Below, in pieces: positions 6,664 to 63,877 of a stretch of DNA of 64,000 nt. Both the position numbers and the translations under genes were made by a program. Each line of letters starts with the position of its first letter. Position 1 is the first letter of the stretch. Below the pieces are notes generated by a model, which did no database searches, was not told where the DNA came from, and saw only the letters and a program-made list of their open reading frames with translations. Source of the stretch: Candidatus Bipolaricaulota bacterium (GTDB taxonomy: Bacteria > Bipolaricaulota > Bipolaricaulia > Bipolaricaulales > Bipolaricaulaceae); the NCBI GenBank assembly GCA_014361015.1, contig JACIWJ010000001.1, forward strand, positions 7,765-71,764, in the 5' to 3' direction.

Positions 6664-6674
6664 TGATTCTCCTT

Positions 6675-47565: not shown

Positions 47566-50500
47566 GTGATCGACCAGGTGCGCAAGCGAGACGGGAGCGT
47601 TGTTCCATTCGAGAAGGAGAAGATCGCGGCTGCCATCCAGCGCGCCCTGGCCGAGGTGGGGCGCGACGATGCCCCGCTGGCGGCCGCGCTCGCGTCTCAG
47701 GTGGAACAGGCCCTCGCGCTCCGGTTCGGCCCCCTGTTCGGTCCCCCCCATGTGGAGGAGATCCAGGACGCGGTGGAGGAGGCCCTCATGGCCGCCGGCC
47801 TTCCCGATGCGGCGCGGGCGTACATCGTCTACCGCCACCAGCACAAGCAGCTTCGCGAGATCAAGGAGCTCGTCGATCCTGGGCTCGTGGGGAGCTACCT
47901 CAACGGCCAGGACTGGCGGGTGCGCGAGAACTCGAACATGGCGTTCTCCCTCCAAGGGCTGAACGTGTTCCTCACGGAGAAGATCATCGGCCAGTACTGG
48001 CTCACGAAGGTGTACCCAGACCCGATCCGCCGGGCGCACACCGAGGGTGACTTCCACATCCACGACCTCGGCACCCTGGGCCCGTACACCTACTACGGCA
48101 AGGAAGTGGTGGTCGCACGCCATGCGGGGCAACTGAAGGTCTGTTCGTTCGAACAGCTGTACGCGGGGTCAGCGGTCGAGGAGGTCCTCCTCTGCGAGGC
48201 TGACGGCGCGTACGCCAAGTTCCCGAACGACCTCTACGTCCTCGACAAGGACGGCTGGACACGCGTCACACGGCTCGTGCGGAAGGCCAAGCACCGCCCA
48301 ATGCGGTTCATCAAGAACCGGGGCGGGCGGAGCGTGATCGTGACCGACAACCACCCGATGATCGTTCCCCACGGGGAGAAGGAGGCCGTGGCCCTCAACG
48401 AGGGCGACCGCACGTTCACGGTGAGCTTGACGCGCCTGCTTGCCCACGAGAACTTGTTCTCCCAGAGCGAGCTCGACCTGGCGGAGGCGATCCGCGAGCG
48501 GGGGGCCGGTGGCCGGCCGGTGTACCTGGACGGAGTGCCCCTCTCGGAAGCGAGCGATGGCGACCTCCTCCACACCGCGAGCTCCTCGTTCCCCCGCCAC
48601 GTGCGGTTGACGGAAGGGTTCGGCTACTTCGTGGGCCTGACGTTGGCCGAGGGGTTCCTGTCCTATGACCGCAGGGGCAGCCGGGTCATCTCCATCACCC
48701 AGCGGGAGCGGGAGCGGTTGGTACGCGCCAACCGAGGCCTCCTGGACAATCGGACATCGGGTTGCCTGCGGTTGCGGGACGACGGCCGCTGGGAGCTGCG
48801 GGTGGCCAATCCGTTCCTGCGTTTTCTGTTCGAGCGGGTGTTCGAGATCCGGCCCGGCTCCCGTCACAAAACCCTCCCCGTCGGAATCCTGGGCTACAGC
48901 CGCAGCTTCGTCCAGGGCCTCATCGCTGGGTTGATCGATGGGGACGGGACGGTGGAGAGCTGCGGTACCCGACTGTCGCTGCGGGTTGCGGCGCGGAGCC
49001 TCCTCGAGCAGCTGGCGGTGGTGATGGAGCTCTTGGGCTTCATCCCCCGCGATCGGGCCCTGGAGGGCCAGGGGAGCCGCCGCTGGGCCCTCGGGCGGGC
49101 GATCGTTCAGAACCACCCGCTGTACGGGCTTTCGTTCAGCAAGACCCCGCTGGAGCTCCCTGGGGAGAAGTACCAGGAGGCGGCGGTGGCCACCAAGGCG
49201 TGGCACGACGCGGACCGCGACGAGTGGCACCGGGTGATCAACAACGACCCCGTGGACATCCCGGACGAGATCATCTACGACGTGACCACCGAGTCGGGCA
49301 CGCTGGTGGTGAACGGGATGTGGAACCACAACTGCGTGGGGTGGGACCTGGCGGACCTCCTGCGGCAGGGGTTCCGCGGGGCGCGGGGGAAGGTCGAATC
49401 GAGGCCACCGAAGCACTTCCGGGTGGCGCTCATGCAGGCGGTGAACTTCCTCTACACCCTCCAGGGCGAGGCCGCCGGCGCGCAGGCGTTCTCGGGCGTG
49501 GATACCCTCCTCGCCCCGTTCATCGCCGCCGACGGGCTGTCCTACCGCGAGGTCAAGCAGGCCCTCCAGGAGTTCGTCTACAACCTGAACGTACCCACCC
49601 GGGTGGGGTTCCAGACGCCGTTCACGAACATCACCCTCGACCTCCGGCCGCCGGCGCACATGGCTGCGCTGCCGGCCTTGGTGGGAGGGCAGCCGTTCGG
49701 CACGTACGGCGAGTTCACGAGGGAGATGGGTCTGTTCAACCGCGCTCTCGCCGAGGTGCTGACGGAGGGCGACGCCCGGGGGAGGGTGTTCACCTTCCCC
49801 ATCCCGACCTACAACGTGACGGGCGACTTCCCGTGGGACGATCCGAACCTCGTCCCGCTGTGGGAGATGACGGCCAAGTACGGGATCCCCTACTTCGCGA
49901 ACTTCCTCTCCTCGGACATGAAGCCGGAGGACGCCCGCAGCATGTGCTGCCGGCTCAGGCTCGACGTGCGCGAGCTCCGGCGCCGCGGGGGAGGGCTGTT
50001 TGGATCGAACCCCCTCACGGGTTCGATCGGCGTGGTGACCCTGAACCTGCCGCGGCTCGCGTTCCTCTCCAAGGGCGAGGACGAGTTCTTCGAGCGCCTG
50101 CAGGCGCTCATGCAGACCGCGGGACGATCGCTCATCATCAAGCGCAAGCTCCTGGAACGCCTCACCGAGCAGGGGCTGTACCCGTACTCCCAGTTCTACC
50201 TGTCCTCGGTCCGGGAGCAGCGAGGCGAGTACTGGGGGAACCACTTCTCCACGATCGGCGTGATCGGGCTGAACGAGGCCGCGCTGAACCTCGTCGGGGT
50301 CAACCTCGCCCACGAGGAGGGGATCCGGTTCGCGCGCCGGACCCTCCAGTTCATGCGCGAGACCCTCGTTCGGTTTCAGGAGGCGACCGGCCACCTGTGG
50401 AACCTCGAGGCGACCCCCGCCGAGGGGACGGCCTATCGGTTGGCGATGCTCGACCGGGCGCGCCATCCGGGGATCCGGGTTGCCAACGAGCACGCGGTGA

Positions 50501-50856
50501 GGGAGAAGGGGGCCGCGCCCTACTACACGAACTCGTCCCAGCTTCCGGTGGACTTCACCGACGACCTGTTTCGTGCCCTCAAGCTCCAGGAGCCACTCCA
50601 GACCCTGTACACCGGGGGGACCGTGTTCCACGCTTGGCTCGGGGAACGGCTTCCAGCGCCCGAAGCCGTGAAGTCCCTCGTGGCGAAGATCTTCGCGAAC
50701 TTCCGCATCCCCTATCTCACCCTCACCCCGACGTTCTCCGTATGTCCCCGGCACGGGTACCTTCCCGGGGAGAACCGCTATTGCCCCCAGTGCGACGAGG
50801 AGATCATCGTGCGCCATCAGAAGGCCCAAGGAGGCGTTTGTGTCCACGTACCGTGA
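47566..50856 (+). CDS. nrdD: anaerobic ribonucleoside-triphosphate reductase (class III) large fragment, with ATP-cone and an intein, lacking the glycyl-radical domain
   Basis: ATP-cone VRKRDGSVVPFEKEKI. GDFHIHDLGTLGPY ... CVGWDLADLL is interrupted by the intein. C-terminal Zn-ribbon remnant CPRHGY...CPQC. The frame ends 21 codons after CPQC without an RVxGY motif. GTG start after AAGGAGA. Confidence 0.9.
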   Translation: MIDQVRKRDGSVVPFEKEKIAAAIQRALAEVGRDDAPLAAALASQVEQALALRFGPLFGPPHVEEIQDAVEEALMAAGLPDAARAYIVYRHQHKQLREIKELVDPGLVGSYLNGQDWRVRENSNMAFSLQGLNVFLTEKIIGQYWLTKVYPDPIRRAHTEGDFHIHDLGTLGPYTYYGKEVVVARHAGQLKVCSFEQLYAGSAVEEVLLCEADGAYAKFPNDLYVLDKDGWTRVTRLVRKAKHRPMRFIKNRGGRSVIVTDNHPMIVPHGEKEAVALNEGDRTFTVSLTRLLAHENLFSQSELDLAEAIRERGAGGRPVYLDGVPLSEASDGDLLHTASSSFPRHVRLTEGFGYFVGLTLAEGFLSYDRRGSRVISITQRERERLVRANRGLLDNRTSGCLRLRDDGRWELRVANPFLRFLFERVFEIRPGSRHKTLPVGILGYSRSFVQGLIAGLIDGDGTVESCGTRLSLRVAARSLLEQLAVVMELLGFIPRDRALEGQGSRRWALGRAIVQNHPLYGLSFSKTPLELPGEKYQEAAVATKAWHDADRDEWHRVINNDPVDIPDEIIYDVTTESGTLVVNGMWNHNCVGWDLADLLRQGFRGARGKVESRPPKHFRVALMQAVNFLYTLQGEAAGAQAFSGVDTLLAPFIAADGLSYREVKQALQEFVYNLNVPTRVGFQTPFTNITLDLRPPAHMAALPALVGGQPFGTYGEFTREMGLFNRALAEVLTEGDARGRVFTFPIPTYNVTGDFPWDDPNLVPLWEMTAKYGIPYFANFLSSDMKPEDARSMCCRLRLDVRELRRRGGGLFGSNPLTGSIGVVTLNLPRLAFLSKGEDEFFERLQALMQTAGRSLIIKRKLLERLTEQGLYPYSQFYLSSVREQRGEYWGNHFSTIGVIGLNEAALNLVGVNLAHEEGIRFARRTLQFMRETLVRFQEATGHLWNLEATPAEGTAYRLAMLDRARHPGIRVANEHAVREKGAAPYYTNSSQLPVDFTDDLFRALKLQEPLQTLYTGGTVFHAWLGERLPAPEAVKSLVAKIFANFRIPYLTLTPTFSVCPRHGYLPGENRYCPQCDEEIIVRHQKAQGGVCVHVP
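48088..49332 (+). mobile_element. intein (415 aa) with LAGLIDADG homing endonuclease inside nrdD
   Basis: Block A-like TYYGKEVVV, block B VIVTDNHP, LAGLIDADG motifs (FVGLTLAEGF, LIAGLIDGDGTV), block F IIYDVTTESGTLVVNG, block G MWNHN followed by +1 Cys. Removing it joins ...LGPY to CVGWDL... Confidence 0.85.
50828..50842 (+). promoter_or_regulatory. Shine-Dalgarno AAGGAGG plus GTG start of the glycyl-radical ORF, inside the 3-prime end of nrdD
   Basis: AAGGAGG (50828-50834), 5-nt spacer CGTTT, GTG at 50840. The nrdD-frame TGA is at 50854-50856. Confidence 0.55.
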
Positions 50857-51814: not shown

Positions 51815-52785
51815 TCGAGTCCCACCCGGGCGCGGACCTCGCGCATCGTCTCCCGGGCGATCGCCCGCGCCCTCCCGGCGCCGTGGGCGAGGACCTCGTC
51901 CACGTCTCCGCGGGCGGTGAGCTCCTCTCGGCGCTCGCGGATCGGGCGCAGGGCGTCCGCGAGGTGGGTGAACAACGCCTCCTTGAGGTCGCGGTAGAGG
52001 AGTCTTCCCGCGTTGTGGTCGCGGCGGAACGTGTCCACGACCTCGGTTGGGGCCACGAGTTCAAGGAGGGAAAACAGGTTCGCGACCCCCGGGGACATCT
52101 CCTGGCCCGGGGTGAGCCCGACGTCGGTCACCGCCGACCGGACCTTCTTGCGAACGCTCTCCTCCGGTTCCATGAGGCCGATGTAGTGGTCCGGGCCGGC
52201 GGACTTGCTCATCTTCCGCGCCGGATCGGCCAACGACATGATCCGTGCCCCCTCTCCGACGATCGGCTCCGGCTCGGGGAACGTGTCCCCGAACCGGAAG
52301 TTGAACCGCCGGGCGATCCGCCGCGCCTCCTCCAGGTGCTGGACCTGGTCCTCCCCCACCGGGACGTGGTCAGCGTGGAAGAGGAGGATGTCCGCGGCCT
52401 GGAGGACGGGGTAGTAGAACAGCCCGCCGTTGACGAACTCCTGGCGGGCGGACTTCTCCTTGAACTGGGTCATCCGCGTCAGGTCGCCGTAGGAGGCGAC
52501 ACAGCCCAGGATCCAGCACAGCTCCGTGTGCTCGGGGACCGCGGACTGCACGTAGAGGATCGAGCGTTCGGGATCCACGCCGCAGGCAAGGAGGTCGAGG
52601 GCGAGTTCCCGCCGCGCCGCGCGGAGCTCGGCCGGCACCGTGTCCTCGTTCGTGAGGGCGTGGTAGTCGACGATGGAGTAGATGCAGTCGTTCCGCTCCT
52701 GGAGCTCGACCCAGCGCCGGATCGCCCCGAAGTAGTTCCCGATGTGAAGCGCGCCGGTCGGTTGGATGCCTGAGAAGATGCGCAT
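51811..52785 (-). CDS. trpS: tryptophan--tRNA ligase
   Basis: MRIFSGIQPTGALHIGNY (HIGH) and KMSKS motifs, 324 aa. Confidence 0.95.
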   Translation of the reverse strand: MRIFSGIQPTGALHIGNYFGAIRRWVELQERNDCIYSIVDYHALTNEDTVPAELRAARRELALDLLACGVDPERSILYVQSAVPEHTELCWILGCVASYGDLTRMTQFKEKSARQEFVNGGLFYYPVLQAADILLFHADHVPVGEDQVQHLEEARRIARRFNFRFGDTFPEPEPIVGEGARIMSLADPARKMSKSAGPDHYIGLMEPEESVRKKVRSAVTDVGLTPGQEMSPGVANLFSLLELVAPTEVVDTFRRDHNAGRLLYRDLKEALFTHLADALRPIRERREELTARGDVDEVLAHGAGRARAIARETMREVRARVGLD

Positions 52786-53923
52786 GGATCCCTCCCTGAG
52801 GCGGGAAGTATAGATGGGCTCCGGTCAGGTCACAAGGCAAAGCTCTGCCAGCCAGGGCGCTCGGTGCGGTTCGCACGTCGCGCTGGATGTAGTGGGCCAA
52901 GAGATCGTTACCACCTCTGAGGGCCCAGTCGGCACTGATCCGGTCGAGCACCAGAGGCGGGAACAGCGCGAACTCGCGGGGTAGATCGTAGCCCAGCTCC
53001 TGTAGCACCTGGAACGGTGGTTTCCCGTCCATCCCCGCCCCGTAGTGCGGCCGCTCCAGGTGGTAGTAGTACACCCAGCCCGCAGCCTTGTGGAGGAACC
53101 CCGCTTCCGTCCGCACCTTGTCCAGGAACGGCAGGTAGAACTCCTCGTCGTCCGTGCGGTGGGAGCGCTCCACCCGACCGTTGTGTTCTTTCTTCCCCAG
53201 CGGGATCCGGGCCAGCCTCACCTCCAGGGGAGCGTAGTGCTTCTCCTGGAGCCGGTGGAGCTTCTGGGGGTTACTGCCCCCGAACTCTTCCCCCCAGTCC
53301 GTCTGCCACGCCAGTTCTCCCTCGATCCCGTGTCCCCTAACCCACAGCATCACCAGTCCCATGAAGCACAACCCGTTGGTCAACGTGATCTCGTGGCTCC
53401 ACGCCAGGAACCGCAGCCTCGTCCGTCCCTCGAGGAACGTCCACTGGTACCGGGGAAGCTTCCGTTTCGCCAGATGATCCCAGAGCTTCGTTCCCAGCGC
53501 CCCCTTGTCGAGCACGTCCTTCACGTCCACCTGGGCGAGGGTGAACGGCTTCTCTTCCTCCCACGCCCAGGAGGCAGGGTAGAACGTCTTCCTCTTCGTC
53601 TTGTGCCCCCTGAACCCGTTCCGACGGAGGATGTGGCGGATCGTGTGGGGGGCGAGGACGAGCCCCTTCTCCCGCCACAGGTACCAGGCAAGCCTCTTCC
53701 GGCCGTAGCCCGTGGCCTTCTTGGCTTCGAGAACCGCGGCCTCGATCTGGGCCACGGTCTGGGTGGGACAGTGGCGGGGACGACGCGAGCGATCCCCAAG
53801 TCCTGCCGCCCCTCCCGTGCGGTAGCGCTGTACCCACTTCCGGACGAGGTTTCGGGACGTGTGCCACCTCCGGGCGGTCTCGGCGATGCTCCCCGTCTGC
53901 AGGTACGTCTCGACCAGCCTCAT
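52370..53923 (-). CDS. IS481-family DDE transposase; the ORF has no stop inside the element and runs on into the trpS 5-prime region in another frame
   Basis: N-terminal HTH GSIAETARRWHTSRNLVRKWVQRY...RSRRP and rve-type catalytic regions (QVDVKD, WQTDWGEEF, NGRVERSH). Homology-like sequence ends near GGNDLLAHY, at about 52890 inside the right IR. Confidence 0.85.
   Translation of the reverse strand: MRLVETYLQTGSIAETARRWHTSRNLVRKWVQRYRTGGAAGLGDRSRRPRHCPTQTVAQIEAAVLEAKKATGYGRKRLAWYLWREKGLVLAPHTIRHILRRNGFRGHKTKRKTFYPASWAWEEEKPFTLAQVDVKDVLDKGALGTKLWDHLAKRKLPRYQWTFLEGRTRLRFLAWSHEITLTNGLCFMGLVMLWVRGHGIEGELAWQTDWGEEFGGSNPQKLHRLQEKHYAPLEVRLARIPLGKKEHNGRVERSHRTDDEEFYLPFLDKVRTEAGFLHKAAGWVYYYHLERPHYGAGMDGKPPFQVLQELGYDLPREFALFPPLVLDRISADWALRGGNDLLAHYIQRDVRTAPSALAGRALPCDLTGAHLYFPPQGGIHAHLLRHPTDRRASHRELLRGDPALGRAPGAERLHLLHRRLPRPHERGHGAGRAPRGAAGTRPRPPCLRRGSRTLDPLRAVRGPRAHGAVLDPGLCRLLRRPDADDPVQGEVRPPGVRQRRAVLLPRPPGRGHPPLPR
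52892..52913. repeat. IS481-like terminal inverted repeat (trpS-proximal)
   Basis: GTGGGCCAAGAGATCGTTACCA is complementary to 54065-54086 at 20 of 22 positions (checked base by base). Confidence 0.7.
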
Positions 53924-54169: not shown

Positions 54170-54865
54170 ATGACCGGACCGGACGCGACAACCGTAAGCT
54201 GTGCCTCCTGTCCCTCCCGCCCCCGGTGTGTCCTCTCGGCTGTGGAACCCGAGGCCCTCCGAAGGTTCGCGCCATGCGGCCAGCGGGTTCGGTTCGAGAG
54301 GGGCACGACGATCGTCCACGAGGGGACTCCCTCCACAGGCTGGGTCATCCTCTGTCACGGACGGGCCCGGCTCACCGTGAGCACGGAGGACGGCAAGAGG
54401 TTGCTGCTGCGGTTCTGCGGCCCGGGCGAGCTTCTCGCGGGGTCGCTGTCCGGGCCCCACGGTTTATCGGTGACCGCCGCCTCGCGCTGCGTTGTGGGGT
54501 TCGTCCCCCGCGAGCACGTCCTGGACTTTGGCCGCCGGTGCCCGGAGTTGCTCGCTGCAGCCCACCTGCGCTGGGAGGAGAGGGAGCGTGCTCTGACAAA
54601 GCGCTTGGTGGACCTCGCCTACGCGAGCACCCGACGGCGCCTGGTGCGGGTGCTCCTGGAGCTGGCGGAGGAGCACGGGGTACGGGAGGGCGCCAAGATG
54701 CGGATCGAGCTTCCGCTATTGCTTGGGGACCTGGCGGGGATGATCGGTGCGAGCCGGCAGACGACCTGCGAGGAAGTTCAGCTGCTGCGTGCCGAGGGGT
54801 TGATCGAGGTTGCCTGGCCGCGGGTCTTCCGTGCGGACGTCGAGCACCTGCGCCAGCTCAGCTGA
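54170..54865 (+). CDS. Crp/Fnr family transcriptional regulator with FNR-like N-terminal Cys cluster
   Basis: CASCPSRPRC (C-x2-C-x5-C) near the N-terminus, a cNMP-binding-like beta-roll, and a C-terminal HTH LAGMIGASRQTTCEEVQLL. Confidence 0.85.
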   Translation: MTGPDATTVSCASCPSRPRCVLSAVEPEALRRFAPCGQRVRFERGTTIVHEGTPSTGWVILCHGRARLTVSTEDGKRLLLRFCGPGELLAGSLSGPHGLSVTAASRCVVGFVPREHVLDFGRRCPELLAAAHLRWEERERALTKRLVDLAYASTRRRLVRVLLELAEEHGVREGAKMRIELPLLLGDLAGMIGASRQTTCEEVQLLRAEGLIEVAWPRVFRADVEHLRQLS

Positions 54866-55028
54866 CGAATGTTCTGCTCTGGGAAGAATCCTTATTCCAG
54901 ACCGTACTTCGCCCTCTGGCATCGCCAAGGCGAACGCCGTCGTTGGCCAAGATGAACGGAATCGTTCAGCTAGTTGATTGACGAGCGATGTCGGGAAGAA
55001 AAATATTTAAACTATAGGAGGTGAGAAC

Positions 55029-55142
55029 ATGAGGGCTATTAATGAGACGACATGGCTCCAGAAGGAAGATGGAATTGGAGTTATCCGTGGAACAAGCTGT
55101 GGCGTCATTTGTTCGCCTTACTGTAAGGCGGAGATAAAATGA
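55029..55142 (+). CDS. candidate 37-aa Cys-rich precursor peptide (MRAINETTWLQKEDGIGVIRGTSCGVICSPYCKAEIK)
   Basis: Not in the ORF track because it is under 60 aa. Strong SD AGGAGGTG (55016-55023) lies 5 nt before the ATG. C-x3-C-x3-C motif in the C-terminal half. AT-rich context. Only about 28 bp from the SPASM ORF once the IS256 is removed. Confidence 0.45.
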   Translation: MRAINETTWLQKEDGIGVIRGTSCGVICSPYCKAEIK

Positions 55143-55157
55143 TTTGAGGTTTTTGGT

Positions 55158-55172
55158 CACCGGGCAGTTGCA
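55158..55172. repeat. IS256 left terminal inverted repeat
   Basis: CACCGGGCAGTTGCA is the exact reverse complement of 56627-56641. Confidence 0.85.
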
Positions 55173-55312
55173 TAGGTAGAGTCCCAGGACGTGGTGTAGA
55201 TCCAGTGGCGTGAGGGAGCAGTGCTCTGGGGATGGGGCAAGGCGGCCTTGACGGAGAGGCCACCGGAGGGTTCCTTTGGTGCTATCTCGACGTGAAAGGA
55301 GGAACCCAACCG

Positions 55313-56548
55313 ATGGCCGATGTGAGGATCGCACTACGGGAGCTTCTGCGCAAGTACAGGGACGACACGCAAGTGGACGCCCTCAAGGAGGGCCTTGTCC
55401 TCCTCGTCCAGGAGCTGATGGAGGCGGAGGTGAAGGAGAAGACCGGGGCCGAGCGGTACAAGCGAACGCCCGCTCGGCGAACGTACCGCAACGGGTACCG
55501 CCCGAGGAGGTGGGACACCCGGGTGGGCTCGGTGAAACTGCGGATCCCGAAAGTTCGCCAGGGGAGCTACTTCCCGAGCCTTCTTGAGCCAAGGCGGAGG
55601 ACGGAGAAGGCGCTTCTTTCCGTAGTCCAGGAGGCGTACATCCATGGGGTGAGCACGCGGAAGGTGGACGACCTCGTGCGAGCCCTCGGGATCGAAGGGA
55701 TCTCCCGAAGCGAAGTGTCGAGGATCTGTGCGGCCCTGGACGAGCGGATGGAGGAGTTCCGGAACCGTCCCCTCGTAGGGGAGTACCCGTACGTGTGGCT
55801 GGACGCGACGGTGGTGAAGGCTCGTGAGGGCGGACGGGTGGTGAACATGGCGGCGGTGGTAGCGGTGGGAGTGACCGCCCAGGGAGAGCGGGAGATCCTG
55901 GGGTTCGACGTGGGTCCTGCGGAGAGCTACGGGTTCTGGCTCTCGTTCCTGAGGGGGATCGTCGCCCGAGGTCTCACCGGGGTGAAGCTCGTTGTTTCCG
56001 ATGCCCATGTGGGTCTCAAGGAGGCGTTGTCCGAGGTGCTGGGGGGAGCGAGCTGGCAGAGGTGCCGGGTGCACTTCATGCGGAACCTGCTGGGGTTGGT
56101 CCCGCGGGGAGCGCAGCAGCTGCTGGGGGCGTGGGTACGGACGATCTTCGCCCAGCCCGACCAAGAGGCAGCGCGGGAGCAACTGGAGCTGGTGGCCGAG
56201 AGTTTGGAGGAGAAGTACCCCAAGGCGGCGGACCTTCTCCGGGAAGCGGGGGAGGACGTGATCGCGCACATGGCTTTCCCGCAAGCGCACTGGCGGAGGA
56301 TACACTCGACGAACGTCCTCGAGCGGTTGCACCGCGAGATCAAGCGGAGGTGCAACGTCGTGGGGATCTTCCCGAACGCGGCGTCGGCTCTGCGGCTGAT
56401 CGGGGCGGTGCTGGAGGAGCAGGGAGACGAGTGGCTCGCTGTGCGGCGTTATTTCAGCTTGGGGTCGATGGCCGCCCTGTACGGCAACCCCCGGGAGGAG
56501 CCCGAGGTCCCTGCCCTGGGGGTCGCGAAGGAGGTGATCGCGGTCTAG
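55313..56548 (+). CDS. IS256-family (Mutator-like) transposase
   Basis: Typical IS256 sequence: ERYKRTPARRTYRNGYRPRRWDTRVGSVKLRIPKVRQGSYFPSLLEPRRR, VSDAH.GL, QRC.VHFMRN, STN.LERLH.EIKRR. Confidence 0.95.
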   Translation: MADVRIALRELLRKYRDDTQVDALKEGLVLLVQELMEAEVKEKTGAERYKRTPARRTYRNGYRPRRWDTRVGSVKLRIPKVRQGSYFPSLLEPRRRTEKALLSVVQEAYIHGVSTRKVDDLVRALGIEGISRSEVSRICAALDERMEEFRNRPLVGEYPYVWLDATVVKAREGGRVVNMAAVVAVGVTAQGEREILGFDVGPAESYGFWLSFLRGIVARGLTGVKLVVSDAHVGLKEALSEVLGGASWQRCRVHFMRNLLGLVPRGAQQLLGAWVRTIFAQPDQEAAREQLELVAESLEEKYPKAADLLREAGEDVIAHMAFPQAHWRRIHSTNVLERLHREIKRRCNVVGIFPNAASALRLIGAVLEEQGDEWLAVRRYFSLGSMAALYGNPREEPEVPALGVAKEVIAV

Positions 56549-56626
56549 CTCGTCACAACCGACGAGGAACCCAATCTACACCATTTGACGGGACGTGACC
56601 GTTGCATATGAGCTCCAGTCTAATAG

Positions 56627-56641
56627 TGCAACTGCCCGGTG
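56627..56641. repeat. IS256 right terminal inverted repeat
   Basis: TGCAACTGCCCGGTG. Confidence 0.85.
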
Positions 56642-56654
56642 TTGATTATTTGCT

Positions 56655-57203
56655 ATGGATCAGCTGTACATCAGTTCACACACGATAGAGTTCAAGGTTG
56701 ACGGGGTGCTCTACCTCTTCAACCCGCTAAGCGGGGCCCTGGATTGCATAGAGGATCCAGCCAAACAACGTGAATGGAAGTGTCTGAAAGGTCATAGGCG
56801 GGGCTCCCTCGAGTTGGTGAAGGAGCTGGAGAGCAGAGGCCATCTTTACAGGGATCAGCACGAGGAGATAGCACTCGCGAACAGACTGTGTCATGCGGAC
56901 AGTGTTGGGAGATCTGACTTCATCGTCGGGAGGTATATTCCCAGCCTCCAACTTGACGCCTCAGCCTCCGATCTGTGGCGCCACACTGATCCCCTGCTGC
57001 ACAATCCGGGTTGCGCGGTCTGTCCTGTGCGGCCATGCTGCGGTGGAGGTTGTTGGTTTCGGCGTATCTGTGCCGTAGGATCGCCTGCTCATGCCTATTG
57101 CACCGAGCAGGTACGTCCCGTGCTAGATGTAGGAGTCAAGTACCTTCACCGAGTGCCGGAGGTCTTCGAGCTGGACACCGAGCGCCCTCACCCGAGGGGG
57201 TAG
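56655..57203 (+). CDS. PqqD/RRE-like N-terminal domain fused to a SPASM (auxiliary 4Fe-4S) domain, without a radical SAM CxxxCxxC core
   Basis: The N-terminus IEFKVDGVLYLFNPLSGALDCIEDPAKQREW...SLELVKELESRGHLY resembles a RiPP recognition element. C-terminal CAVCPVRPCCGGGC (CX2CX5CX3C) plus a downstream Cys is the SPASM signature. No CxxxCxxC anywhere in the 182 aa. Confidence 0.65.
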   Translation: MDQLYISSHTIEFKVDGVLYLFNPLSGALDCIEDPAKQREWKCLKGHRRGSLELVKELESRGHLYRDQHEEIALANRLCHADSVGRSDFIVGRYIPSLQLDASASDLWRHTDPLLHNPGCAVCPVRPCCGGGCWFRRICAVGSPAHAYCTEQVRPVLDVGVKYLHRVPEVFELDTERPHPRG

Positions 57204-57205
57204 AG

Positions 57206-58861
57206 ATGAAGACCAGGTTGCACCGCGTGGTGCGGTTCTGGCGGGAACACGTTTTCCGGTACCGCGCCCTGTGGGTGCTCGCCCTGGGCTTGCACCTTCT
57301 GTTCTTCGCCCTGAGCGGGATCCTCCCCTTCTTCTTCAAGCGGGTGATCGACGCCTTAACCGCCCTTGATCCTGGTGCCTTCGCTCTGTGGATCGCGGTG
57401 TTCCTGGGGACAGAAATCACCCAGGTCGCCCTCATGTACGCCCGGGGGTACGCAGCCCGCCGGCTGGAGCTCAAGGTGGAACAGGACGTCCTGATCACGA
57501 TGTACCGCCGCTACCACACCATGCCCTACGCCCAGGCCGTGACCACCAAGGCCGGGGAGGCCGTACAGCGACTCACGAGTGACGTTCCCTGTGCCTCGCC
57601 CCTCATCGTGAAGAGTTTCGCCGAGCTCGTCGGACACATCGTGCTGGTGGTGATCGTCCTCTCCCTCATGTTCGCCATGGCCCCGATTCTGGCGGGAATC
57701 GCCCTGACGTTTGTTGCCATCTACACGGTGGGCTTCCGCCTCTACGGGAAGCGGGCTTCGGCCGCCGCAGCGCGGCGCCAGGAGGCCGAGGCGCGGTACG
57801 TGGCGGCGGCGGAGGAGGGGCTGGCGGCCTTGTACTCAGTACGGGTCCAGGCTGGACTGCGTGGAGTGATGGACCGGTTTTCCCGCGCTCTGACCGCTTA
57901 CCTACGGGAGGGGTTCGCCTTGTACAACCTGACCCTTCTCTTCCAAGGTGGGTTCACAACCGCGATTACTGTAGCCTCAGAGGTGGTGGTGCTCCTGGCC
58001 GGTGCGTGGCTCATCTTCCGCGGGGAGGCCACGGTGGGGACCTTGATCGCGTTCAGCCAGTACGTGAACTGGCTATACGTGTTCGTCGGTTTCATGTCCA
58101 ACTTCGCGGCGGAGGTGGAACCGGCCGTGGTCTCCCTGAAGAGGGTCCAAGACGTGCTCAGCCTTCCCGAGCAGTGGACCGTGGAGAAGCCGATCCTCCT
58201 CGAGGCGCTCCCCGACCACCCGTACGCGCTCGAGGTGCGGGACCTTTACTTTGCGGTCGGAGACACGGTTATCCTGCGGGGCGTGTCGCTGCAGCTCGAG
58301 CGGGGCCGGACTGTGGCCGTGATGGGCCGGAGCGGCCTGGGGAAGTCCACGCTCCTCAACCTCGTCCTCGGCCTGTACCCTGTACCCCCGGGGAAGGTCT
58401 TCCTGTTCGGGCGCGATGTGACCGAAATCCCCCTCCCGGAGCGGGTGGGGCTGCTAGGGGTGGTGGAGCAGGAACCGAAGTTTGTGAGCGCCGACGAGGG
58501 AGGAACCCTGGCCATGGCCCTCGGCGTTCCTGAAGAGAGGCTCCGTGCGGTGTCCCGGAAGCTGGGGCTGGAGGAGTTCGTGGAGGGGCTTCTGGCGCGG
58601 CGGCTGACCTCGGCCAAGCTGTCCGAGCTCTCGGGGGGAGAACGCAAGCTTTTGGGCATCGTTCGAGGGTTCGTCCGGGAGGCGCCGCTGGTGCTCCTCG
58701 ATGAGCCCACCGCGTTTCTGGATGAGAAAACGGCGGCGACGGTTCTCGATCATATACGCAGGAACTTCCCCGGGCTCACGGTGGTCATGTTCTCGCACGA
58801 CCCCCTGGTGCGCGACCGCTGCGACGCCGTAATCGACCTTGCGGCCGCCGAGGCTGGCTGA
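57206..58861 (+). CDS. ABC exporter, fused TMD-NBD half transporter (no C39 peptidase domain)
   Basis: Six-TM ABC_membrane region, Walker A GRSGLGKST, signature LSGGERKLL, Walker B LVLLDEPT. It starts 2 nt after the SPASM ORF stop. Confidence 0.9.
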   Translation: MKTRLHRVVRFWREHVFRYRALWVLALGLHLLFFALSGILPFFFKRVIDALTALDPGAFALWIAVFLGTEITQVALMYARGYAARRLELKVEQDVLITMYRRYHTMPYAQAVTTKAGEAVQRLTSDVPCASPLIVKSFAELVGHIVLVVIVLSLMFAMAPILAGIALTFVAIYTVGFRLYGKRASAAAARRQEAEARYVAAAEEGLAALYSVRVQAGLRGVMDRFSRALTAYLREGFALYNLTLLFQGGFTTAITVASEVVVLLAGAWLIFRGEATVGTLIAFSQYVNWLYVFVGFMSNFAAEVEPAVVSLKRVQDVLSLPEQWTVEKPILLEALPDHPYALEVRDLYFAVGDTVILRGVSLQLERGRTVAVMGRSGLGKSTLLNLVLGLYPVPPGKVFLFGRDVTEIPLPERVGLLGVVEQEPKFVSADEGGTLAMALGVPEERLRAVSRKLGLEEFVEGLLARRLTSAKLSELSGGERKLLGIVRGFVREAPLVLLDEPTAFLDEKTAATVLDHIRRNFPGLTVVMFSHDPLVRDRCDAVIDLAAAEAG

Positions 58862-58964: not shown

Positions 58965-59924
58965 ATGATCAGCTGTCGGGGAGTGGCGAAGACCTATATT
59001 GTGCGCGAGCGGGCCGGGCTCTTCCGCCGTGGGATGCGGCGGGAGATCGACGCCCTGCACGGGATCGACCTTACGATTGGGCAAGGCGAGTTCGTGGGGC
59101 TCCTCGGCCGCAACGGTGCCGGGAAGACCACGCTCCTCAAGATCGTGGCCACCCTCCTCCTTCCCAGCCGAGGGGAGGTCGAGGTAGACGGGATCGACGC
59201 CCTGCGCGAGCCGGCGAAAGTGCGCCACAAGCTCGGGGTGGTCCTCGCCGGCGAGCGCACGCTCTACTGGAAGCTCACAGCGATGGAGAACCTGCTCCTG
59301 TTCGGCGGGCTGCAGGACCTCCCGCGACGGGAGGCGCGCGCTCGGGCCGAGGAACTCTTGGAACTCGTCGGCCTCTCGGACTTTTCCCACGTCTCCGTGG
59401 AAAAATTCTCCAGCGGCATGCGCAAGCGCCTGGCCATCGCCCGGGCCCTCGTGCACCGTCCGCCGACACTGATCCTCGATGAGCCGACCACGGGGCTCGA
59501 TCCCCACGGCGTGGAGGAGGTGTGGGAGGTGCTGCGGGCGCTGCAGGACGAGGGCACCACAGTGCTCATGGCCACCCACAACATGCTGGAGGCCGAGCGG
59601 CTCCCGACGCGCCTTCTCATCATCGAGGAGGGGAAGCTTCTCGCCGACGGAACGCCACAGGAGATCACCGCGCGTTCTGGAACGCAGCGAACCGCAGTGC
59701 TGACACTCGGCTCCCGGCCCGAGGTGGACGACGGGCTCCACGTCCACGCACTCGGGGACGGCTCCTTTTCGCTGGCCGCTCCGGTGGACCGGCTGCCGGC
59801 GCTTCTCGCCCGGATCCAGGCCGAGGGCGTGCACCTGGTTAATCTGGAGATTGTGGAATCGGGGCTGTGGGAAGCGTTCCTAGAGCTCACCGGCCGACCG
59901 TTCGACACCGCGGAGGAAGGATGA
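58965..59924 (+). CDS. ABC-2 type transporter ATP-binding protein
   Basis: Walker A GRNGAGKTT, signature FSSGMRKRLAIA, Walker B LILDEPTTGLD. Confidence 0.9.
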   Translation: MISCRGVAKTYIVRERAGLFRRGMRREIDALHGIDLTIGQGEFVGLLGRNGAGKTTLLKIVATLLLPSRGEVEVDGIDALREPAKVRHKLGVVLAGERTLYWKLTAMENLLLFGGLQDLPRREARARAEELLELVGLSDFSHVSVEKFSSGMRKRLAIARALVHRPPTLILDEPTTGLDPHGVEEVWEVLRALQDEGTTVLMATHNMLEAERLPTRLLIIEEGKLLADGTPQEITARSGTQRTAVLTLGSRPEVDDGLHVHALGDGSFSLAAPVDRLPALLARIQAEGVHLVNLEIVESGLWEAFLELTGRPFDTAEEG

Positions 59925-60679
59925 GAGGTTTCCTGGCCCTTGTGCGAAAGGAGCTCCTTATCTTTCGCGCTTACCCGCTGGACCTTGTCAACTTGGCCCT
60001 GTCCCCAGGGCTGTTGGTGGCGCCCTACCTGGTGGTGGCGCGGCTTTTCGGGGCCGGACCCGACTTCCAGTCGCAGGTGGCTGTGGGCCTGCTCCTTTGG
60101 TACTGGCTGTCCACGCTGTTCTGGGAGGTAGGCCACGGAATCAGCGAGGAGATGGAAGAAGGGGTGTTGGAGCAGGTCCTGGTGACACCGACATCGCTTC
60201 TTGCCGTGCTCGGGGCGAAGGCAGTCGGCGCGATGGTCACCAACGCGTACATCAGTGCGGGGATCGTTGGCTGGCTGTTCGCCTTCGGAATCCCATTGCC
60301 CCTGCCGTGGCCGGCGTTCGTCGGAGTGATGCTCCTCACGGGCCTGGGTCTGGGCGGCTTCTGCATGGCGTACGCGGGGCTCGTGTTGCTGGTCAAACGG
60401 GCGGAGAACCTGGGGGCGGGAACGCAGACCGTGCTCGGGGCGCTGGCCGGGATGACCGTACCGCCGCAGGTCCTTCCACAAGCGGCGTGGATCATCTCCC
60501 GGGTGATCCCGCTCAGCTATGGGATCGAGGCAGCCCGCAGGCTTCTCGGGGGAGAGAGGGTCGGCGATCCGCTCCTGTGGCTCGTGCTTTCGGGAGCCGC
60601 CTACGGCGTGGCCGGTTGGGCGCTTCTGCAGCGCGCCCAGCGGCGGATGCGCACCGCCGGGACCACGGGGGAGTTCTGA
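59921..60679 (+). CDS. ABC-2 type transporter permease
   Basis: ATGA overlap with the ATPase gene. Six hydrophobic segments, MRGFLALVRKELLIFRAYP N-terminus. Confidence 0.8.
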   Translation: MRGFLALVRKELLIFRAYPLDLVNLALSPGLLVAPYLVVARLFGAGPDFQSQVAVGLLLWYWLSTLFWEVGHGISEEMEEGVLEQVLVTPTSLLAVLGAKAVGAMVTNAYISAGIVGWLFAFGIPLPLPWPAFVGVMLLTGLGLGGFCMAYAGLVLLVKRAENLGAGTQTVLGALAGMTVPPQVLPQAAWIISRVIPLSYGIEAARRLLGGERVGDPLLWLVLSGAAYGVAGWALLQRAQRRMRTAGTTGEF

Positions 60680-60680
60680 T

Positions 60681-61484
60681 ATGCGGCCGGCGCTCACGTT
60701 CCTTGCCTACAGCCTGCGCATCATGACCCGCTATCGCTCGGAGTTCTACGGGTCGTTCACCACCCCCCTTCTCCTCGCTCTTCCCGCCCTCCTCCTTGGC
60801 TACTGGGGGGAGCAGCTTGGGTATCTGGAGGCGTTTGCCGAAGCGACCGGCACCGCACGGTACGCTGTGTACCTCCTCGTGGGCGCGGTGTATTGGAACT
60901 ACGTGGAGGCTGTGTGGTCGATCGCATTCTCGTTGCGGGCGGCAATGCGATGGGGCGTGTTGGAGTCCCTTCTTGTCACCCGCCTTTCCCGCCTGGGGAT
61001 GATCCTCGCCTGGTCGGGCCGTAGCCTCCTCGGCGTGACCGTGCACTCGATCCTCGCCATTGCCCTCGTGCTGCCCCTCGGCGGATGGCCCGGCGCGGCT
61101 GCGGTAGGAGCCATTCTGCTCGTGCTCCTGTGCTCGGTGATCGGCTCCTACGGAATGGCGTTTTTGCTGTTTGGGCTGACGCTTCGCTTCAAAGACGCCG
61201 AGTCGCTACTGAGCTTGGTTGGAAATGTGGCCCCTCTTCTCGGTGGGGTGTTCTTTCCTGTCGCGTTCCTGCCGGTGTTCCTCCGCCCGCTGTCCTACCT
61301 CTTCCCCTTCACCTATGGGGTCGACGCCGTGCGCGCCCTGTGGCTGGGCACACCCGCCATGTTCCCCATGGGCCTCCAGCTCGGACTCCTGGCGATGCTG
61401 GCCGTGGCCTACGTGGCGTTGGGCTGGTGGGCACTCGTGCACTTCGAACGCCGCGCCCGCCACCACGGCCTCGAAGGGTTCTGA
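60681..61484 (+). CDS. ABC-2 type transporter permease (second subunit)
   Basis: Starts 1 nt after the preceding stop. Multi-TM protein beginning MRPALTFLAYSLRIMTRYRSEF. Confidence 0.8.
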   Translation: MRPALTFLAYSLRIMTRYRSEFYGSFTTPLLLALPALLLGYWGEQLGYLEAFAEATGTARYAVYLLVGAVYWNYVEAVWSIAFSLRAAMRWGVLESLLVTRLSRLGMILAWSGRSLLGVTVHSILAIALVLPLGGWPGAAAVGAILLVLLCSVIGSYGMAFLLFGLTLRFKDAESLLSLVGNVAPLLGGVFFPVAFLPVFLRPLSYLFPFTYGVDAVRALWLGTPAMFPMGLQLGLLAMLAVAYVALGWWALVHFERRARHHGLEGF

Positions 61485-61590: not shown

Positions 61591-62031
61591 CTAATCCTGC
61601 GTCTTTTTCTGCCTCCGCTCGACCCAACAGAGGAAGCGCCACAATCCCCAACTGATAAAAGCCCATGCCAGGCTTCCGCCGATAGCAAACCCTAGGGCGC
61701 TAAGTAGTCGAATTGCAAACGGCTCCCTTATACCGTGGAGAGGGAACATTGCAACAATAAAGCTAATAAATGGAATAGCCGAGCCAACGAAAAAGACAAG
61801 AAGTTGCTTTCGCTTCACTGAAAGGCGGACTCGCTCGTACAATATAGAAAGAACTGCTGCCCAAAATAAAACTGTAACTACAAAAATTAGGAAGCCCAAA
61901 GCTGCCCACCCAAGTGCGACAAACCAAGGTCCCTTCATGCGTTCGAAGAAAGAAGAGGAAGAAAGGATTCCGGCTGGGAAGGCTGCCAACCAACACAGTT
62001 GCCACTCTTCCTTTGTGAGCTCCTCAGGCAT
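61591..62031 (-). CDS. small hypothetical membrane protein (about 4 TM), AT-rich gene
   Basis: 146-aa ORF with four long hydrophobic stretches. Local composition is far below the window norm (23/60 G+C at 61741-61800). Confidence 0.6.
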   Translation of the reverse strand: MPEELTKEEWQLCWLAAFPAGILSSSSFFERMKGPWFVALGWAALGFLIFVVTVLFWAAVLSILYERVRLSVKRKQLLVFFVGSAIPFISFIVAMFPLHGIREPFAIRLLSALGFAIGGSLAWAFISWGLWRFLCWVERRQKKTQD

Positions 62032-62036
62032 AGGTC

Positions 62037-63410
62037 CTATCGGATGATGCGGACCCCGCGCTCCTCCAACTCGTCCAGCACCTCCCGCGCCTCCGGCTTG
62101 AGGAGGATTCGCGTCGCGTTCAAGAATCGCAACGCCGGGAGCTCCAGTAGCGGAGCAAAATCCGACACAGAGTTCGCGGAGAGGTCCAGGATCTCCAGGC
62201 GGAGGAGGCCGGCCAGGGGACTGATGTCGGACACGTTGTTTCCCCCGAGGAGGAGGTCCCGCAGGCCCGCGAGGCTGGCGAGGGGTTCGACGGATCGAAT
62301 CCTGTTCCCCTGAAGGTTCAAGGTCGCGAGGTTCGTTAACTCAGCCAGGGGGGAAAGGTCGGCGATCCGCGCCCCGACCGCGATGAGCTTCGTCAGGTTC
62401 TTCAGTCCGGACAACGGTGCGAGATCCCACACGGGGTTCCCCGAGATCCCGAGGACGCGGAGGTTCGTCAGCCCAGCGAGCGCGGCCAGCGAACCCACCT
62501 GGTTCCCGCTCAAGTCCAGGAACCGGAGTTCGCTGAGGGAGGCAAGGGGGGAGATGTCGGCCACGGCGTTGTGGTCCAGGTCCAGGTAGCGGAGACAGCC
62601 AAGCTCGGCCAGCGGGCTCACGTCGGAGATGTTGTTGCCTAGAAGAACGAGTTTCTCCAGGTTGCGGAGCCCAGCGAGTGGGCTGAGGTCGGAGATGGCA
62701 TTCTGCATCGAGGAGATCTCCCTAAGCTCCGTCAGGCCCGCCAGAGGGGAGAGGTCGGTGACCCCGTTCAGGTCAATCCAAAGCAGGCGCAAGTTCTCGA
62801 GGTGGGACAAAGGAGAGAGGTCAAACACGTTGTTCCCCATGAGCAAAAGCCATTTTAGGTTGATCAAGCCCGCCAAAGGAGTTAAGTCCAGGACATCGTT
62901 GAGCGAGAGATCCAAAACCTCGAGTGTTTGGAGCGAGGCCAAGGGAGCGATGTCCCGGATTCGGTTAAAGGAAAGGGCAAGCTCGACGAGGCTCCGCAGA
63001 CCCGCCAGGGGGGAGAGATCCTCGATCTCGTTGAAGGAAGCCTCAAGCCTTCTGAGTTGGGAAAGCCCAGACAGGGGGGAAAGATCCCGCACGCGGTTCC
63101 GCACAAAAGAAAGCTCCTCCAGAGCAACCAGTTTGGAAATAGGAGAAAGATCGGTTACCCGGTTATCGGTGAGATCAAGCTTTTTAAGGTTCACCGCGTA
63201 TTCGAGACCGGTGAGGTCAGCAATATCTCGTCCAAAAGCATCGAGCTCAGTCAGGCCCGCCAGGTCACTGACCGTGAGATCGCCCTCGGGCTTGCCAACT
63301 GCGGCCCGGATTGCCCCCTCCAGTCCGGGGTCGGGGATGACGACCGCCTGCGCTCCCGGCCCAAGGAGCCCCCACACGAGCACCAGCGCCACCACAACCT
63401 TTGTCCGCAT
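62037..63410 (-). CDS. secreted leucine-rich repeat protein (internalin-like 22-residue LRRs)
   Basis: Signal peptide MRTKVVVALVLVWGLLGPGAQA, then about 18 tandem units of the form LxPLAGLxxLxxLxLxxNxIxD. Confidence 0.85.
   Translation of the reverse strand: MRTKVVVALVLVWGLLGPGAQAVVIPDPGLEGAIRAAVGKPEGDLTVSDLAGLTELDAFGRDIADLTGLEYAVNLKKLDLTDNRVTDLSPISKLVALEELSFVRNRVRDLSPLSGLSQLRRLEASFNEIEDLSPLAGLRSLVELALSFNRIRDIAPLASLQTLEVLDLSLNDVLDLTPLAGLINLKWLLLMGNNVFDLSPLSHLENLRLLWIDLNGVTDLSPLAGLTELREISSMQNAISDLSPLAGLRNLEKLVLLGNNISDVSPLAELGCLRYLDLDHNAVADISPLASLSELRFLDLSGNQVGSLAALAGLTNLRVLGISGNPVWDLAPLSGLKNLTKLIAVGARIADLSPLAELTNLATLNLQGNRIRSVEPLASLAGLRDLLLGGNNVSDISPLAGLLRLEILDLSANSVSDFAPLLELPALRFLNATRILLKPEAREVLDELEERGVRIIR
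62094..63272 (-). repeat. about 18 tandem 66-nt coding repeats (LRR units)
   Basis: Periodic 22-aa units read directly from the translation. The units are divergent at the DNA level. Confidence 0.8.
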
Positions 63411-63451
63411 TGCGCACCTCCTCTGGTTCTCAGTATACCGAGACCGGCCCG

Positions 63452-63877
63452 CTATGGACCACGCCCGCTCCACTCCGCCTCCAGCGACACCCACGTTCGA
63501 TCCCCGCGCAAGGACAGTGCCGCACGCACCCCAAGCTCTCCTTTGCCTTGCGAATCGAGCGCATAACGAAGTCGCACACCAAGTGAGCTTAGCGGAACGC
63601 CCACTCCAAGCACAGGCACATTTAAGCTTCCTGAGATACTAATACTAATCCAAGCATTAGCTACAAACCCTGCCCCCAACGCCAGGATGAGCCATGCGTG
63701 CGGTTCTTCTTCTTGACTTCGTAGCCCAACCTCCCCCACAAGCACCATCGGGTCGCGCAAGAGGCTCACCGCCACTCCGATTCCACCTTTCCACGGGTAC
63801 CCAAGCGAAATTGAGACGCGGGGATCCCACGGGTTTTTCGGATCGAGCCGCCACTCCTGGAACACCGAGTACGCCAC
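63452..63877 (-). CDS. hypothetical protein (possibly N-terminally longer, toward the window edge)
   Basis: 141-aa ORF with a GTG start. The same frame stays open upstream of 63877. Gly/Leu/Val-rich strand-like pattern. No recognisable motif. Confidence 0.35.
   Translation of the reverse strand: MAYSVFQEWRLDPKNPWDPRVSISLGYPWKGGIGVAVSLLRDPMVLVGEVGLRSQEEEPHAWLILALGAGFVANAWISISISGSLNVPVLGVGVPLSSLGVRLRYALDSQGKGELGVRAALSLRGDRTWVSLEAEWSGRGP

Follow-up and report, generated by a model that had tools for sequence, protein, structure and literature searches.

In-frame deletion of a radical SAM core and IS256-family insertion in a probably decaying RiPP cluster of Candidatus Bipolaricaulota

A stretch of 64,000 nucleotides from a Candidatus Bipolaricaulota bacterium (assembly GCA_014361015.1, contig JACIWJ010000001.1, positions 7,765 to 71,764; referred to here as the window) contains, in this order, a small gene for a cysteine-rich peptide, an insertion sequence (IS), an open reading frame (ORF) of 182 codons and an ATP-binding cassette (ABC) exporter. 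The layout is that of clusters for peptides synthesized ribosomally and modified post-translationally (RiPPs) that are matured by radical S-adenosylmethionine (SAM) enzymes, except that the product of the 182-codon ORF joins an N-terminus resembling a RiPP recognition element (RRE) to a SPASM-type cysteine motif, and the catalytic core is missing. Is this protein a minimal RRE and Fe–S module of an undescribed kind, or is it what remains of a canonical enzyme? An earlier note, made from the sequence of the window, had offered both answers. Comparison with orthologous loci, in which intact clusters of the same layout are found, makes the second one very likely: the locus would be a decaying RiPP cluster, and the 182-residue protein a derivative of a canonical RRE–radical SAM–SPASM maturase that lacks residues 81-360.

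An exhaustive HMMER (phmmer) search of 1.84 billion representatives returned 76 relatives of the 182-residue protein, most of them of 445-485 residues and aligned in two separate stretches, with residues ~1-79 of the query over ~1-79 of the target and residues 81-176 over ~360-455; the shorter matches, among those examined, are fragments or other truncations. The best relative (P0059, 463 residues, 68% identity, E 4e-75) and other full-length relatives match Pfam Radical_SAM (E 7e-17) and Fer4_12, and the closest solved relative of the intact orthologs is CteB (PDB 5wgg, E 6.6e-18 over residues 55-413). A word-indexed protein search returned the window ORF itself and one truncated relative of 123 residues, and the impression of an orphan family that it gave was overturned by these full-length relatives. 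The earlier note had reasoned that homologs consisting throughout of full-length radical SAM enzymes would reveal a deletion in the window, and this is essentially what the exhaustive search found.

The extent of the deletion can be read directly from a sister metagenome-assembled genome (MAG), Ca. Bipolaricaulota MAG-25 (JACIWL010000026.1, locus L015), which was recovered by a scan of GTDB species representatives and shows ~91% nucleotide identity to the window. This locus carries a 37-residue peptide, a maturase of 464 residues and the exporter. At the codon level, the window gene corresponds to the L015 gene minus codons 81-360, that is, 840 bp or exactly 280 codons removed in frame, and the flanks of the deletion are 91.7% (codons 1-80) and 91.3% (tail) identical in nucleotides to those of L015. 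The junction reads ...AGA CTG TGT CAT|GCG GAC AGT... at 56892-56894|56895 (...CTGTGTCAT|GCGGACAGT). No repeat is found at this point (CAT|CTC on the left and TGT|GCG on the right in L015), and an origin of the deletion by microhomology was rejected. Within the deleted segment lie the radical SAM cluster site CNLRCVYC, whose CxxxCxxC cysteines ligate the SAM-binding [4Fe-4S] cluster, the SAM-binding motif GGEP and the entire barrel, as well as those SPASM cysteines that stand further upstream (FFCGAQRNEWCFD...YYC in L015). The 182-residue product is, thus, predicted to be catalytically dead, because the CxxxCxxC and GGEP motifs, the barrel and the first SPASM cysteines have been deleted. No other homolog of the maturase family was found in the 64-kb window; intact maturases of a seemingly catalytically competent type are present in the orthologous clusters L008, L015, L016, L017 and L018.

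The domain content of the 182-residue protein agrees with this comparison. As had been noted from its sequence, it contains no CxxxCxxC motif on direct reading and no TIM barrel, and its AlphaFold2 (AF2) model shows no barrel either; it matches no Pfam family, with Radical_SAM (PF04055) unmatched even at E<=1, and both the GGEP motif and the ~170-residue Radical_SAM stretch (residues 94-261 in the orthologs) are missing. The SPASM domain had been described as complete. The CX2CX5CX3C motif is indeed present (C119-AV-C122-PVRPC-C128-GGG-C132) and conserved in the family alignment, but the domain is not complete, since the upstream cysteines, which complete the first auxiliary cluster, fall inside the deleted segment and the score with the SPASM model TIGR04085 is 23.1 bits, below its cutoff of 27, over profile positions 18-83 of 93 and residues 79-142; Pfam SPASM (PF13186) is unmatched. 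Cys79 of the window protein occupies the codon for Arg79 in L015 and lies upstream of the junction. As for the N-terminus, which had been likened to PqqD and RRE domains, a match to Pfam PqqD was not obtained, but the predicted fold is RRE-like. The AF2 model shows the β3α3 arrangement of a winged helix-turn-helix (strands at residues 11-15, 18-23 and 28-32, helices at 35-47, 52-61 and 68-78) with a predicted local distance difference test (pLDDT) score of 91-98, and the top PDB matches in Foldseek are the leader-binding RREs of TbiB1 (probability 0.96, with a weak E of 0.039) and of a lasso B1 protein. The fold gives modest support for an RRE-like N-terminus. The junction residues 80-85 have pLDDT values below 50 and are predicted to be disordered. 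Among curated families, TIGR04463 scores 18 bits with the window ORF, and TIGR04347 (pseudo-SAM/SPASM) is not among its NCBIfam matches.

The features of the cluster and of its immediate surroundings are as follows, in window coordinates.

54170..54865, + strand: Crp/Fnr-family regulator (Pfam cNMP_binding 1.5e-14, HTH_Crp_2 2.9e-11).
55016..55023, + strand: Shine-Dalgarno sequence AGGAGGTG of the precursor gene, from direct reading.
55029..55142, + strand: precursor peptide gene, 37 residues; leader motif TWLQ, core CGVICSPYC of C-x3-C-x3-C spacing.
55158..55173, + strand: left arm of the intergenic hairpin between precursor and maturase genes, from folding of the empty site in L001.
55167..55174, no strand: target-site duplication GTTGCATA, left copy, 8 bp; one copy in L001, two in the window.
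55175..56600, + strand: IS256-family insertion sequence, 1426 bp, from transposase profiles and its absence from L001.
55313-56548: transposase ORF of this element (Pfam PF00872, Transposase_mut, E 3e-129; NCBIfam NF033543, transpos_IS256, 376 bits against a cutoff of 150).
56601..56608, no strand: target-site duplication GTTGCATA, right copy.
56626..56641, + strand: right arm of the intergenic hairpin.
56655..57203, + strand: radical SAM/SPASM maturase remnant, 182 residues, with the RRE-like residues 1-80 joined in frame to the last ~100 residues, which comprise the C-terminal half of SPASM.
57206..58861, + strand: ABC exporter, 551 residues, fused permease and ATPase (ABC_membrane 4.4e-28, ABC_tran 1.4e-24).
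58965..61484, + strand: DrrAB-type ABC transporter adjacent to the cluster (ATPase 58965-59924; permeases 59921-60679 and 60681-61484).

The small ORF at 55029-55142, which reads MRAINETTWLQKEDGIGVIRGTSCGVICSPYCKAEIK, had been proposed to encode a RiPP precursor with a leader-like half and a C-x3-C-x3-C core, and the comparison bears this out. Its Shine-Dalgarno sequence is invariant across four aligned lineages, and homologous peptides are encoded directly 5' of intact maturases in L015 (MRAINETTWLQKEDGVGGMRGTSCGIICSPYCKKGIK, 37 residues), L008 (MKAINQTTWLQMEDMEQLPPKVACAFICSPYCKAPEPT), L016/21 (MSAINKKTWLQSEDVFAGRVGVCCGVICSPYCKQVQT), L017 (MEQITKETWLQKETTSGRIGVTCGMICSPYCVKSTPS), L029 and a Clostridiales genome (L019/28, whose peptide contains ...CGYACGAACSPYCKSS...), and also 5' of broken maturases in L012-14, L034/35 and L036. 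At least eight distinct lineages thus have the peptide conserved beside the maturase. Members of the family have in common the leader motif (T/N)W(L/F)Q, which is co-conserved with the RRE-like domain and hints indirectly that this domain may bind the leader, and the core CxxφCSPYC; the peptides match no curated family in Pfam or NCBIfam. Because it is conserved 5' of intact maturases, the 37-residue ORF is judged, from sequence, to be a genuine RiPP precursor.

An IS256-family element had been recognized between the precursor gene and the 182-codon ORF, and its family assignment stands: it combines a Mutator-type DDE transposase, imperfect terminal inverted repeats (GGTAGAGTCCCAGGACGTGGTGTAGAT / GGTCACGTCCCGTCAAATGGTGTAGAT) and an 8-bp target duplication (8-9 bp in the family), and is present in one copy in the window. 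Its bounds had been placed at 55158-56641, however, and these do not hold. L001, a Logan contig of 6034 bp assembled from run SRR28822788, is identical to the window minus 55175-56608, the IS plus one copy of the duplication, with 0 mismatches over its 6034 bp. It encodes the exact 182-residue protein and has the peptide gene and the 182-codon gene 78 bp apart, without IS, and not ~28 bp apart as had been deduced. Because L001 carries the precise empty site, the element can be delimited to 55175-56600 with an 8-bp duplication, and its supposed termini in the earlier note (caccgggcagttgca ... tgcaactgcccggtg) turn out to be the arms of a hairpin in the host sequence, now separated by the IS.

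In the empty site, these arms (caccgggcagttgcat-N-gtgcaactgcccggtg) fold as a 16-bp stem with a dG of -32.9 kcal/mol (z -3.76). The core of the palindrome, GCAGTTGCA...TGCAACTGC, is conserved between peptide and maturase genes in L015 (~2848-2885) and L008 (~1448-1490), and with one right-arm substitution (TGCAGCTGC) in L016; the length of its loop varies from about 3 to 19 nt, while the sequence stays conserved. The hairpin went unflagged in a scan for consensus terminators; its 19-nt loop is above the limit of the scan and its U-tract is weak, and it is therefore termed here a conserved stem-loop or attenuator candidate rather than a proven terminator. It is likely to be an RNA attenuator or processing element, although the palindrome could also be a protein-binding site. 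The IS lies within the loop of this conserved structure, and its presence is polymorphic between the window and L001.

These observations suggest an order of events. The ancestral cluster would have been chromosomal and native to Bipolaricaulota, consisting of a Crp/Fnr regulator, the precursor, a radical SAM/SPASM maturase with an N-terminal RRE and the ABC exporter. Judging by the enzyme family, in the intact form the RRE would bind the TWLQ-type leader, the radical SAM core would produce the 5'-deoxyadenosyl radical, thioether cross-links would form at the three cysteines of the CxxφCSPYC core and the ABC transporter would export the peptide. The 840-bp in-frame deletion then took out maturase codons 81-360, and left a product that is presumably unable to cleave SAM or to modify the peptide. 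The insertion of the IS256-family element into the hairpin loop came after the deletion, as shown by the polymorphism, since the two assemblies (window and L001) carry the identical maturase deletion and the IS is in the window only. Of the two readings in the earlier note, the one of a decaying cluster that underwent an internal deletion as well as an IS insertion is in this way borne out by the comparison with L015 and by the empty site in L001, and the 182-codon ORF is best seen as a recent derivative of the pseudogene type.

Erosion of this cluster is not restricted to the window, which is one further stage in a repeated process. Intact clusters with homologous peptide and hairpin are found in L008 and L016/21/22. 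In L002, the maturase gene is truncated at its N-terminus and has a different internal deletion; in L011 (GCA_003485525.1), a deletion joins the N-terminus of Crp to the SPASM tail and a different radical SAM/SPASM–ABC pair has been inserted upstream; and in L012-14 the gene lies in two or three pieces, broken by frameshifts and deletions that vary among closely related contigs. Only maturase fragments remain in L023-27. In L034 (598-846) and L035 (690-938), the peptide is followed by an RRE-only ORF of 82 residues and then directly by the exporter, and in L036 (791-1960) an in-frame stop at codon 84 interrupts a maturase that is otherwise intact. The whole cluster is gone from L005, where a 55-residue Crp remnant stands beside the exporter, and in Ca. 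Bipolaricaulis anaerobius (L006/7) an unrelated radical SAM/SPASM gene, a major facilitator superfamily (MFS) gene and an IS fragment take its place. The exporter is kept in every locus, at 65-93% identity. Many of the loci (L015-L033) were found with a tail-only alignment, and the sample is biased toward those that retain the tail.

Other radical SAM genes occupy the interval between trpS and the exporter in two of these genomes: an unrelated 572-residue radical SAM/SPASM gene with an ABC transporter and a helix-turn-helix (HTH) gene in L011 (1122-5197), and an unrelated 458-residue radical SAM/SPASM gene with the MFS gene in L007 (2425-5047), both at ~25% identity to the maturase family of the window. 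The L007 gene was considered as the ancestor of the window ORF and rejected, given that only the Cys motif aligns and that its identity to P0059 is ~25%, and the L011 enzyme was rejected on the same grounds. The trpS-to-exporter interval looks like a hotspot for RiPP-cluster turnover. In L015, furthermore, the Crp regulator is frameshifted (1660-2553) and the DrrB-type permeases survive as remnants (6037-6710). Both are whole in the window, and the two close relatives show reciprocal decay.

The surroundings of the cluster are shared with the intact loci. The window cluster sits downstream of nrdDG and trpS, and L016/21/22 preserve the full order nrdG – trpS(-) – crp – peptide – maturase – exporter, with the same nrdG-trpS-crp synteny as in the window. 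The Crp/Fnr regulator is a conserved upstream neighbour, in the same place in L008, L015 and L016/21/22. Homologs of the exporter place the source organism in Bipolaricaulota (Acetothermia). The exporter, with orthologs 3' of the maturase, whole or remnant, in each related locus, has its start codon 2 nt past the stop of the 182-codon ORF, as had been noted; Pfam and NCBIfam scans found no C39 peptidase domain in it, and the NHLP bacteriocin exporter profile aligns with it from position 157 on. The DrrAB-type transporter that follows was not found after the exporter in L005, L006/7 or L016, and L015 keeps its permease remnants only. The region of peptide and remnant has a lower G+C content (0.49-0.59) than its flanks (0.63-0.71).

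Several points weigh against a simple decay of the cluster. The frame of the remnant is preserved and contains no stop codons, and there is no positive sign of degeneration after the deletion, only of its recency. In the comparison with L015, the ratio of non-synonymous to synonymous substitution rates (dN/dS) comes to 0.08 in the RRE part, from 5.5 non-synonymous and 14.5 synonymous differences, and to 0.75, 0.22 and 0.17, likewise from small counts, in the tail, the peptide and the exporter, respectively, while the changes at otherwise invariant positions comprise three specific to the window (L127P in the Cys motif, H152Q and R180P) and three specific to L015; these ratios and lineage-specific counts are too small in their underlying numbers to date a loss of constraint. 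Moreover, lesions in three different lineages (the window, L034/35 and L036) start within codons 80-84, at the RRE boundary, which could hint at RRE retention, and the precursor gene is intact in all three. The search for a partner enzyme covered the 64-kb window of the source genome. An orphan RRE, alone or with the half-SPASM tail, might have been retained after loss of the core to bind the leader, either presenting unmodified peptide to the exporter or acting in trans for an unlinked radical SAM enzyme, but this seems very unlikely. About as improbable is the proposal that the whole 182-residue protein is a functional minimal RRE and Fe–S module that captures the precursor and acts in trans alongside a radical SAM enzyme whose gene lies elsewhere. 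Such a module would fit the intact frame, the low dN/dS of the RRE, the confidence with which the RRE is modelled and the RRE proteins that lead its Foldseek matches, as well as the precursor gene with its Shine-Dalgarno sequence and ORF retained and the RRE-only ORFs that adjoin the exporter in L034/35. However, the exact architecture and junction are seen in one strain only, the short relatives examined being other truncations or fragments, and in a sister genome with ~91% identity the ortholog has its full length of 464 residues, 280 of which are cleanly deleted in the window, so that the arrangement must be very young. The loss of the upstream SPASM cysteines, the SPASM score below cutoff, the predicted disorder of the junction, the dN/dS of the tail and the Leu-to-Pro change within the CX2CX5CX3C motif point in the same direction, and a partner enzyme was not found in the 64-kb window. 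The undescribed arrangement with an unlinked partner that the earlier note had envisaged is, therefore, unsupported.

The remnant might instead be kept for the sake of the exporter and not for peptide modification, through expression signals (translational coupling or an internal promoter) or through a tail peptide that serves the exporter. The tail ORF stops 2 nt before the exporter start or overlaps it in the window, L002, L008, L011, L013 and L015; it persists as an ORF with core cysteines (the Cys motif and the C-terminal extension (CTE) cysteine) in several loci with different lesions, and the exporter is conserved to the degree given above even where the maturase is absent. Yet many of those loci (L015-L033) were found with the tail as query, which introduces an ascertainment bias, and where sampling was through the exporter, loci without the maturase (L003/4, L005 and L006/7) are without the tail too; L034/35 have lost it as well, with only ~20 nt left ahead of the exporter start. 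The pairwise dN/dS values among distant tails are uninformative on constraint after truncation, as their dS is saturated. Retention for the exporter is, on balance, judged unlikely. An assembly artefact, that is, a collapse or chimera that hides an intact maturase in the true genome, would be conceivable for a metagenome-derived assembly of an uncultured Bipolaricaulota, as such assemblies can hold errors, but the identical deletion in the window and in L001, a separate Logan assembly with the same junction and 0 mismatches, argues against it. Moreover, there is no junction repeat to drive a collapse and the deletion is exactly in frame, and an artefact is considered extremely improbable. The reading as a decaying cluster with a deleted maturase core is, thus, the one retained here.

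Among known systems, the nearest likeness of the intact form is CteB (PDB 5wgg/5why), the thioether-forming maturase of SCIFF, which has the same domain order of RRE, radical SAM core and SPASM and acts on a Cys-rich substrate. However, the similarity is distant, the precursor here is unrelated to SCIFF and the window copy lacks the catalytic core. The top-scoring curated families for the intact orthologs are TIGR04463 and NF038107 (CefB), which align from the RRE-containing N-terminal region into SPASM, in one or two stretches according to the protein, with 129-178 bits against cutoffs of 525/600, too low for membership; these values include 140-144 bits with TIGR04463 and 129-139 with CefB. 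PapB (NF047865) gives 104-105 bits against 340 and SCIFF (TIGR03974) 77-90 against 425. CefB is a Cys-every-fifth maturase, whereas the precursor cysteines here occur every fourth residue. Since the peptides match no model and the maturases fall far below the cutoffs, the intact system appears to be a family of the known radical SAM/SPASM thioether-RiPP type for which no curated model exists. TIGR04347 (pseudo-SAM/SPASM) is a conserved full-length family and a weaker match of an intact homolog, whereas the window ORF derives from a canonical enzyme by truncation.

Thuricin CD (TrnA/B with TrnC/D), whose cysteines lie at positions 5, 9 and 13, and other sactipeptides share the C-x3-C-x3-C spacing, a radical SAM/SPASM maturase and an ABC exporter. 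Unlike in thuricin CD, only 5-7 residues follow the last Cys of the precursor core here, and a thuricin-type nested hairpin with downstream acceptors is, thus, unlikely; similarity of the precursor to Trn peptides was not detected. In PqqD/PqqE and MftB/MftC, the RRE is a discrete protein that acts for a radical SAM/SPASM enzyme, and these pairs are the only mechanistic precedent for an unlinked partner. However, their split is ancient, conserved and contained in one operon, whereas the window RRE is still fused to a SPASM fragment in a recent arrangement seen in one strain. The IS itself, of ~1.4 kb, is ordinary for the IS256 family and is notable only for its target, the hairpin loop between precursor and maturase. 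A literature search gave no paper with the term Bipolaricaulota among its top-ranked results and turned up no radical-SAM RiPPs for the phylum.

Other features of the window lie outside the cluster. The nrdD gene (47566-50856), for the class III ribonucleotide reductase NrdD, contains an intein of 415 residues with a LAGLIDADG endonuclease at 48088-49332, defined against the intein-less ortholog of L005, with exteins that are 93-97% identical. The first residue of an intein is normally expected to be Cys, Ser or Ala; that of the NrdD intein is Thr (GTLGPY|TYYGKE...MWNHN|CVGWDL). A second mobile element (52370-53923, - strand) lies between trpS and the Crp regulator and is IS481/IS3-like, with HTH_28/HTH_32 and a weak rve_3 integrase-core match; its 517-residue ORF runs antisense into trpS, and its extent as listed is uncertain. 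Just downstream of the ABC-2 permeases, two genes of low G+C content (0.46-0.47) encode a multi-pass membrane protein of 146 residues with a weak HisKA_7TM-like match (61591-62031, - strand) and a secreted leucine-rich-repeat protein of 485 residues (62037-63494, - strand; LRR_4 E 3e-68). Their composition suggests a foreign origin.

An RRE–SPASM protein without a radical SAM domain would have been a new enzyme architecture, and what is found instead is a fresh in-frame deletion. For genome mining, the locus illustrates that in-frame deletions can mimic minimal domain architectures and that the arms of a host hairpin can pass for the ends of an IS that has inserted between them. The peptides with a TWLQ leader and a CxxφCSPYC core, together with their RRE–radical SAM–SPASM maturase and exporter, would represent a RiPP family without a curated model, present in Bipolaricaulota, an uncultured phylum, and in some Clostridia-like genomes. 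In Bipolaricaulota, the interval from trpS to the exporter appears as a graveyard of RiPP clusters, with many lesions and with replacement by other radical SAM clusters.

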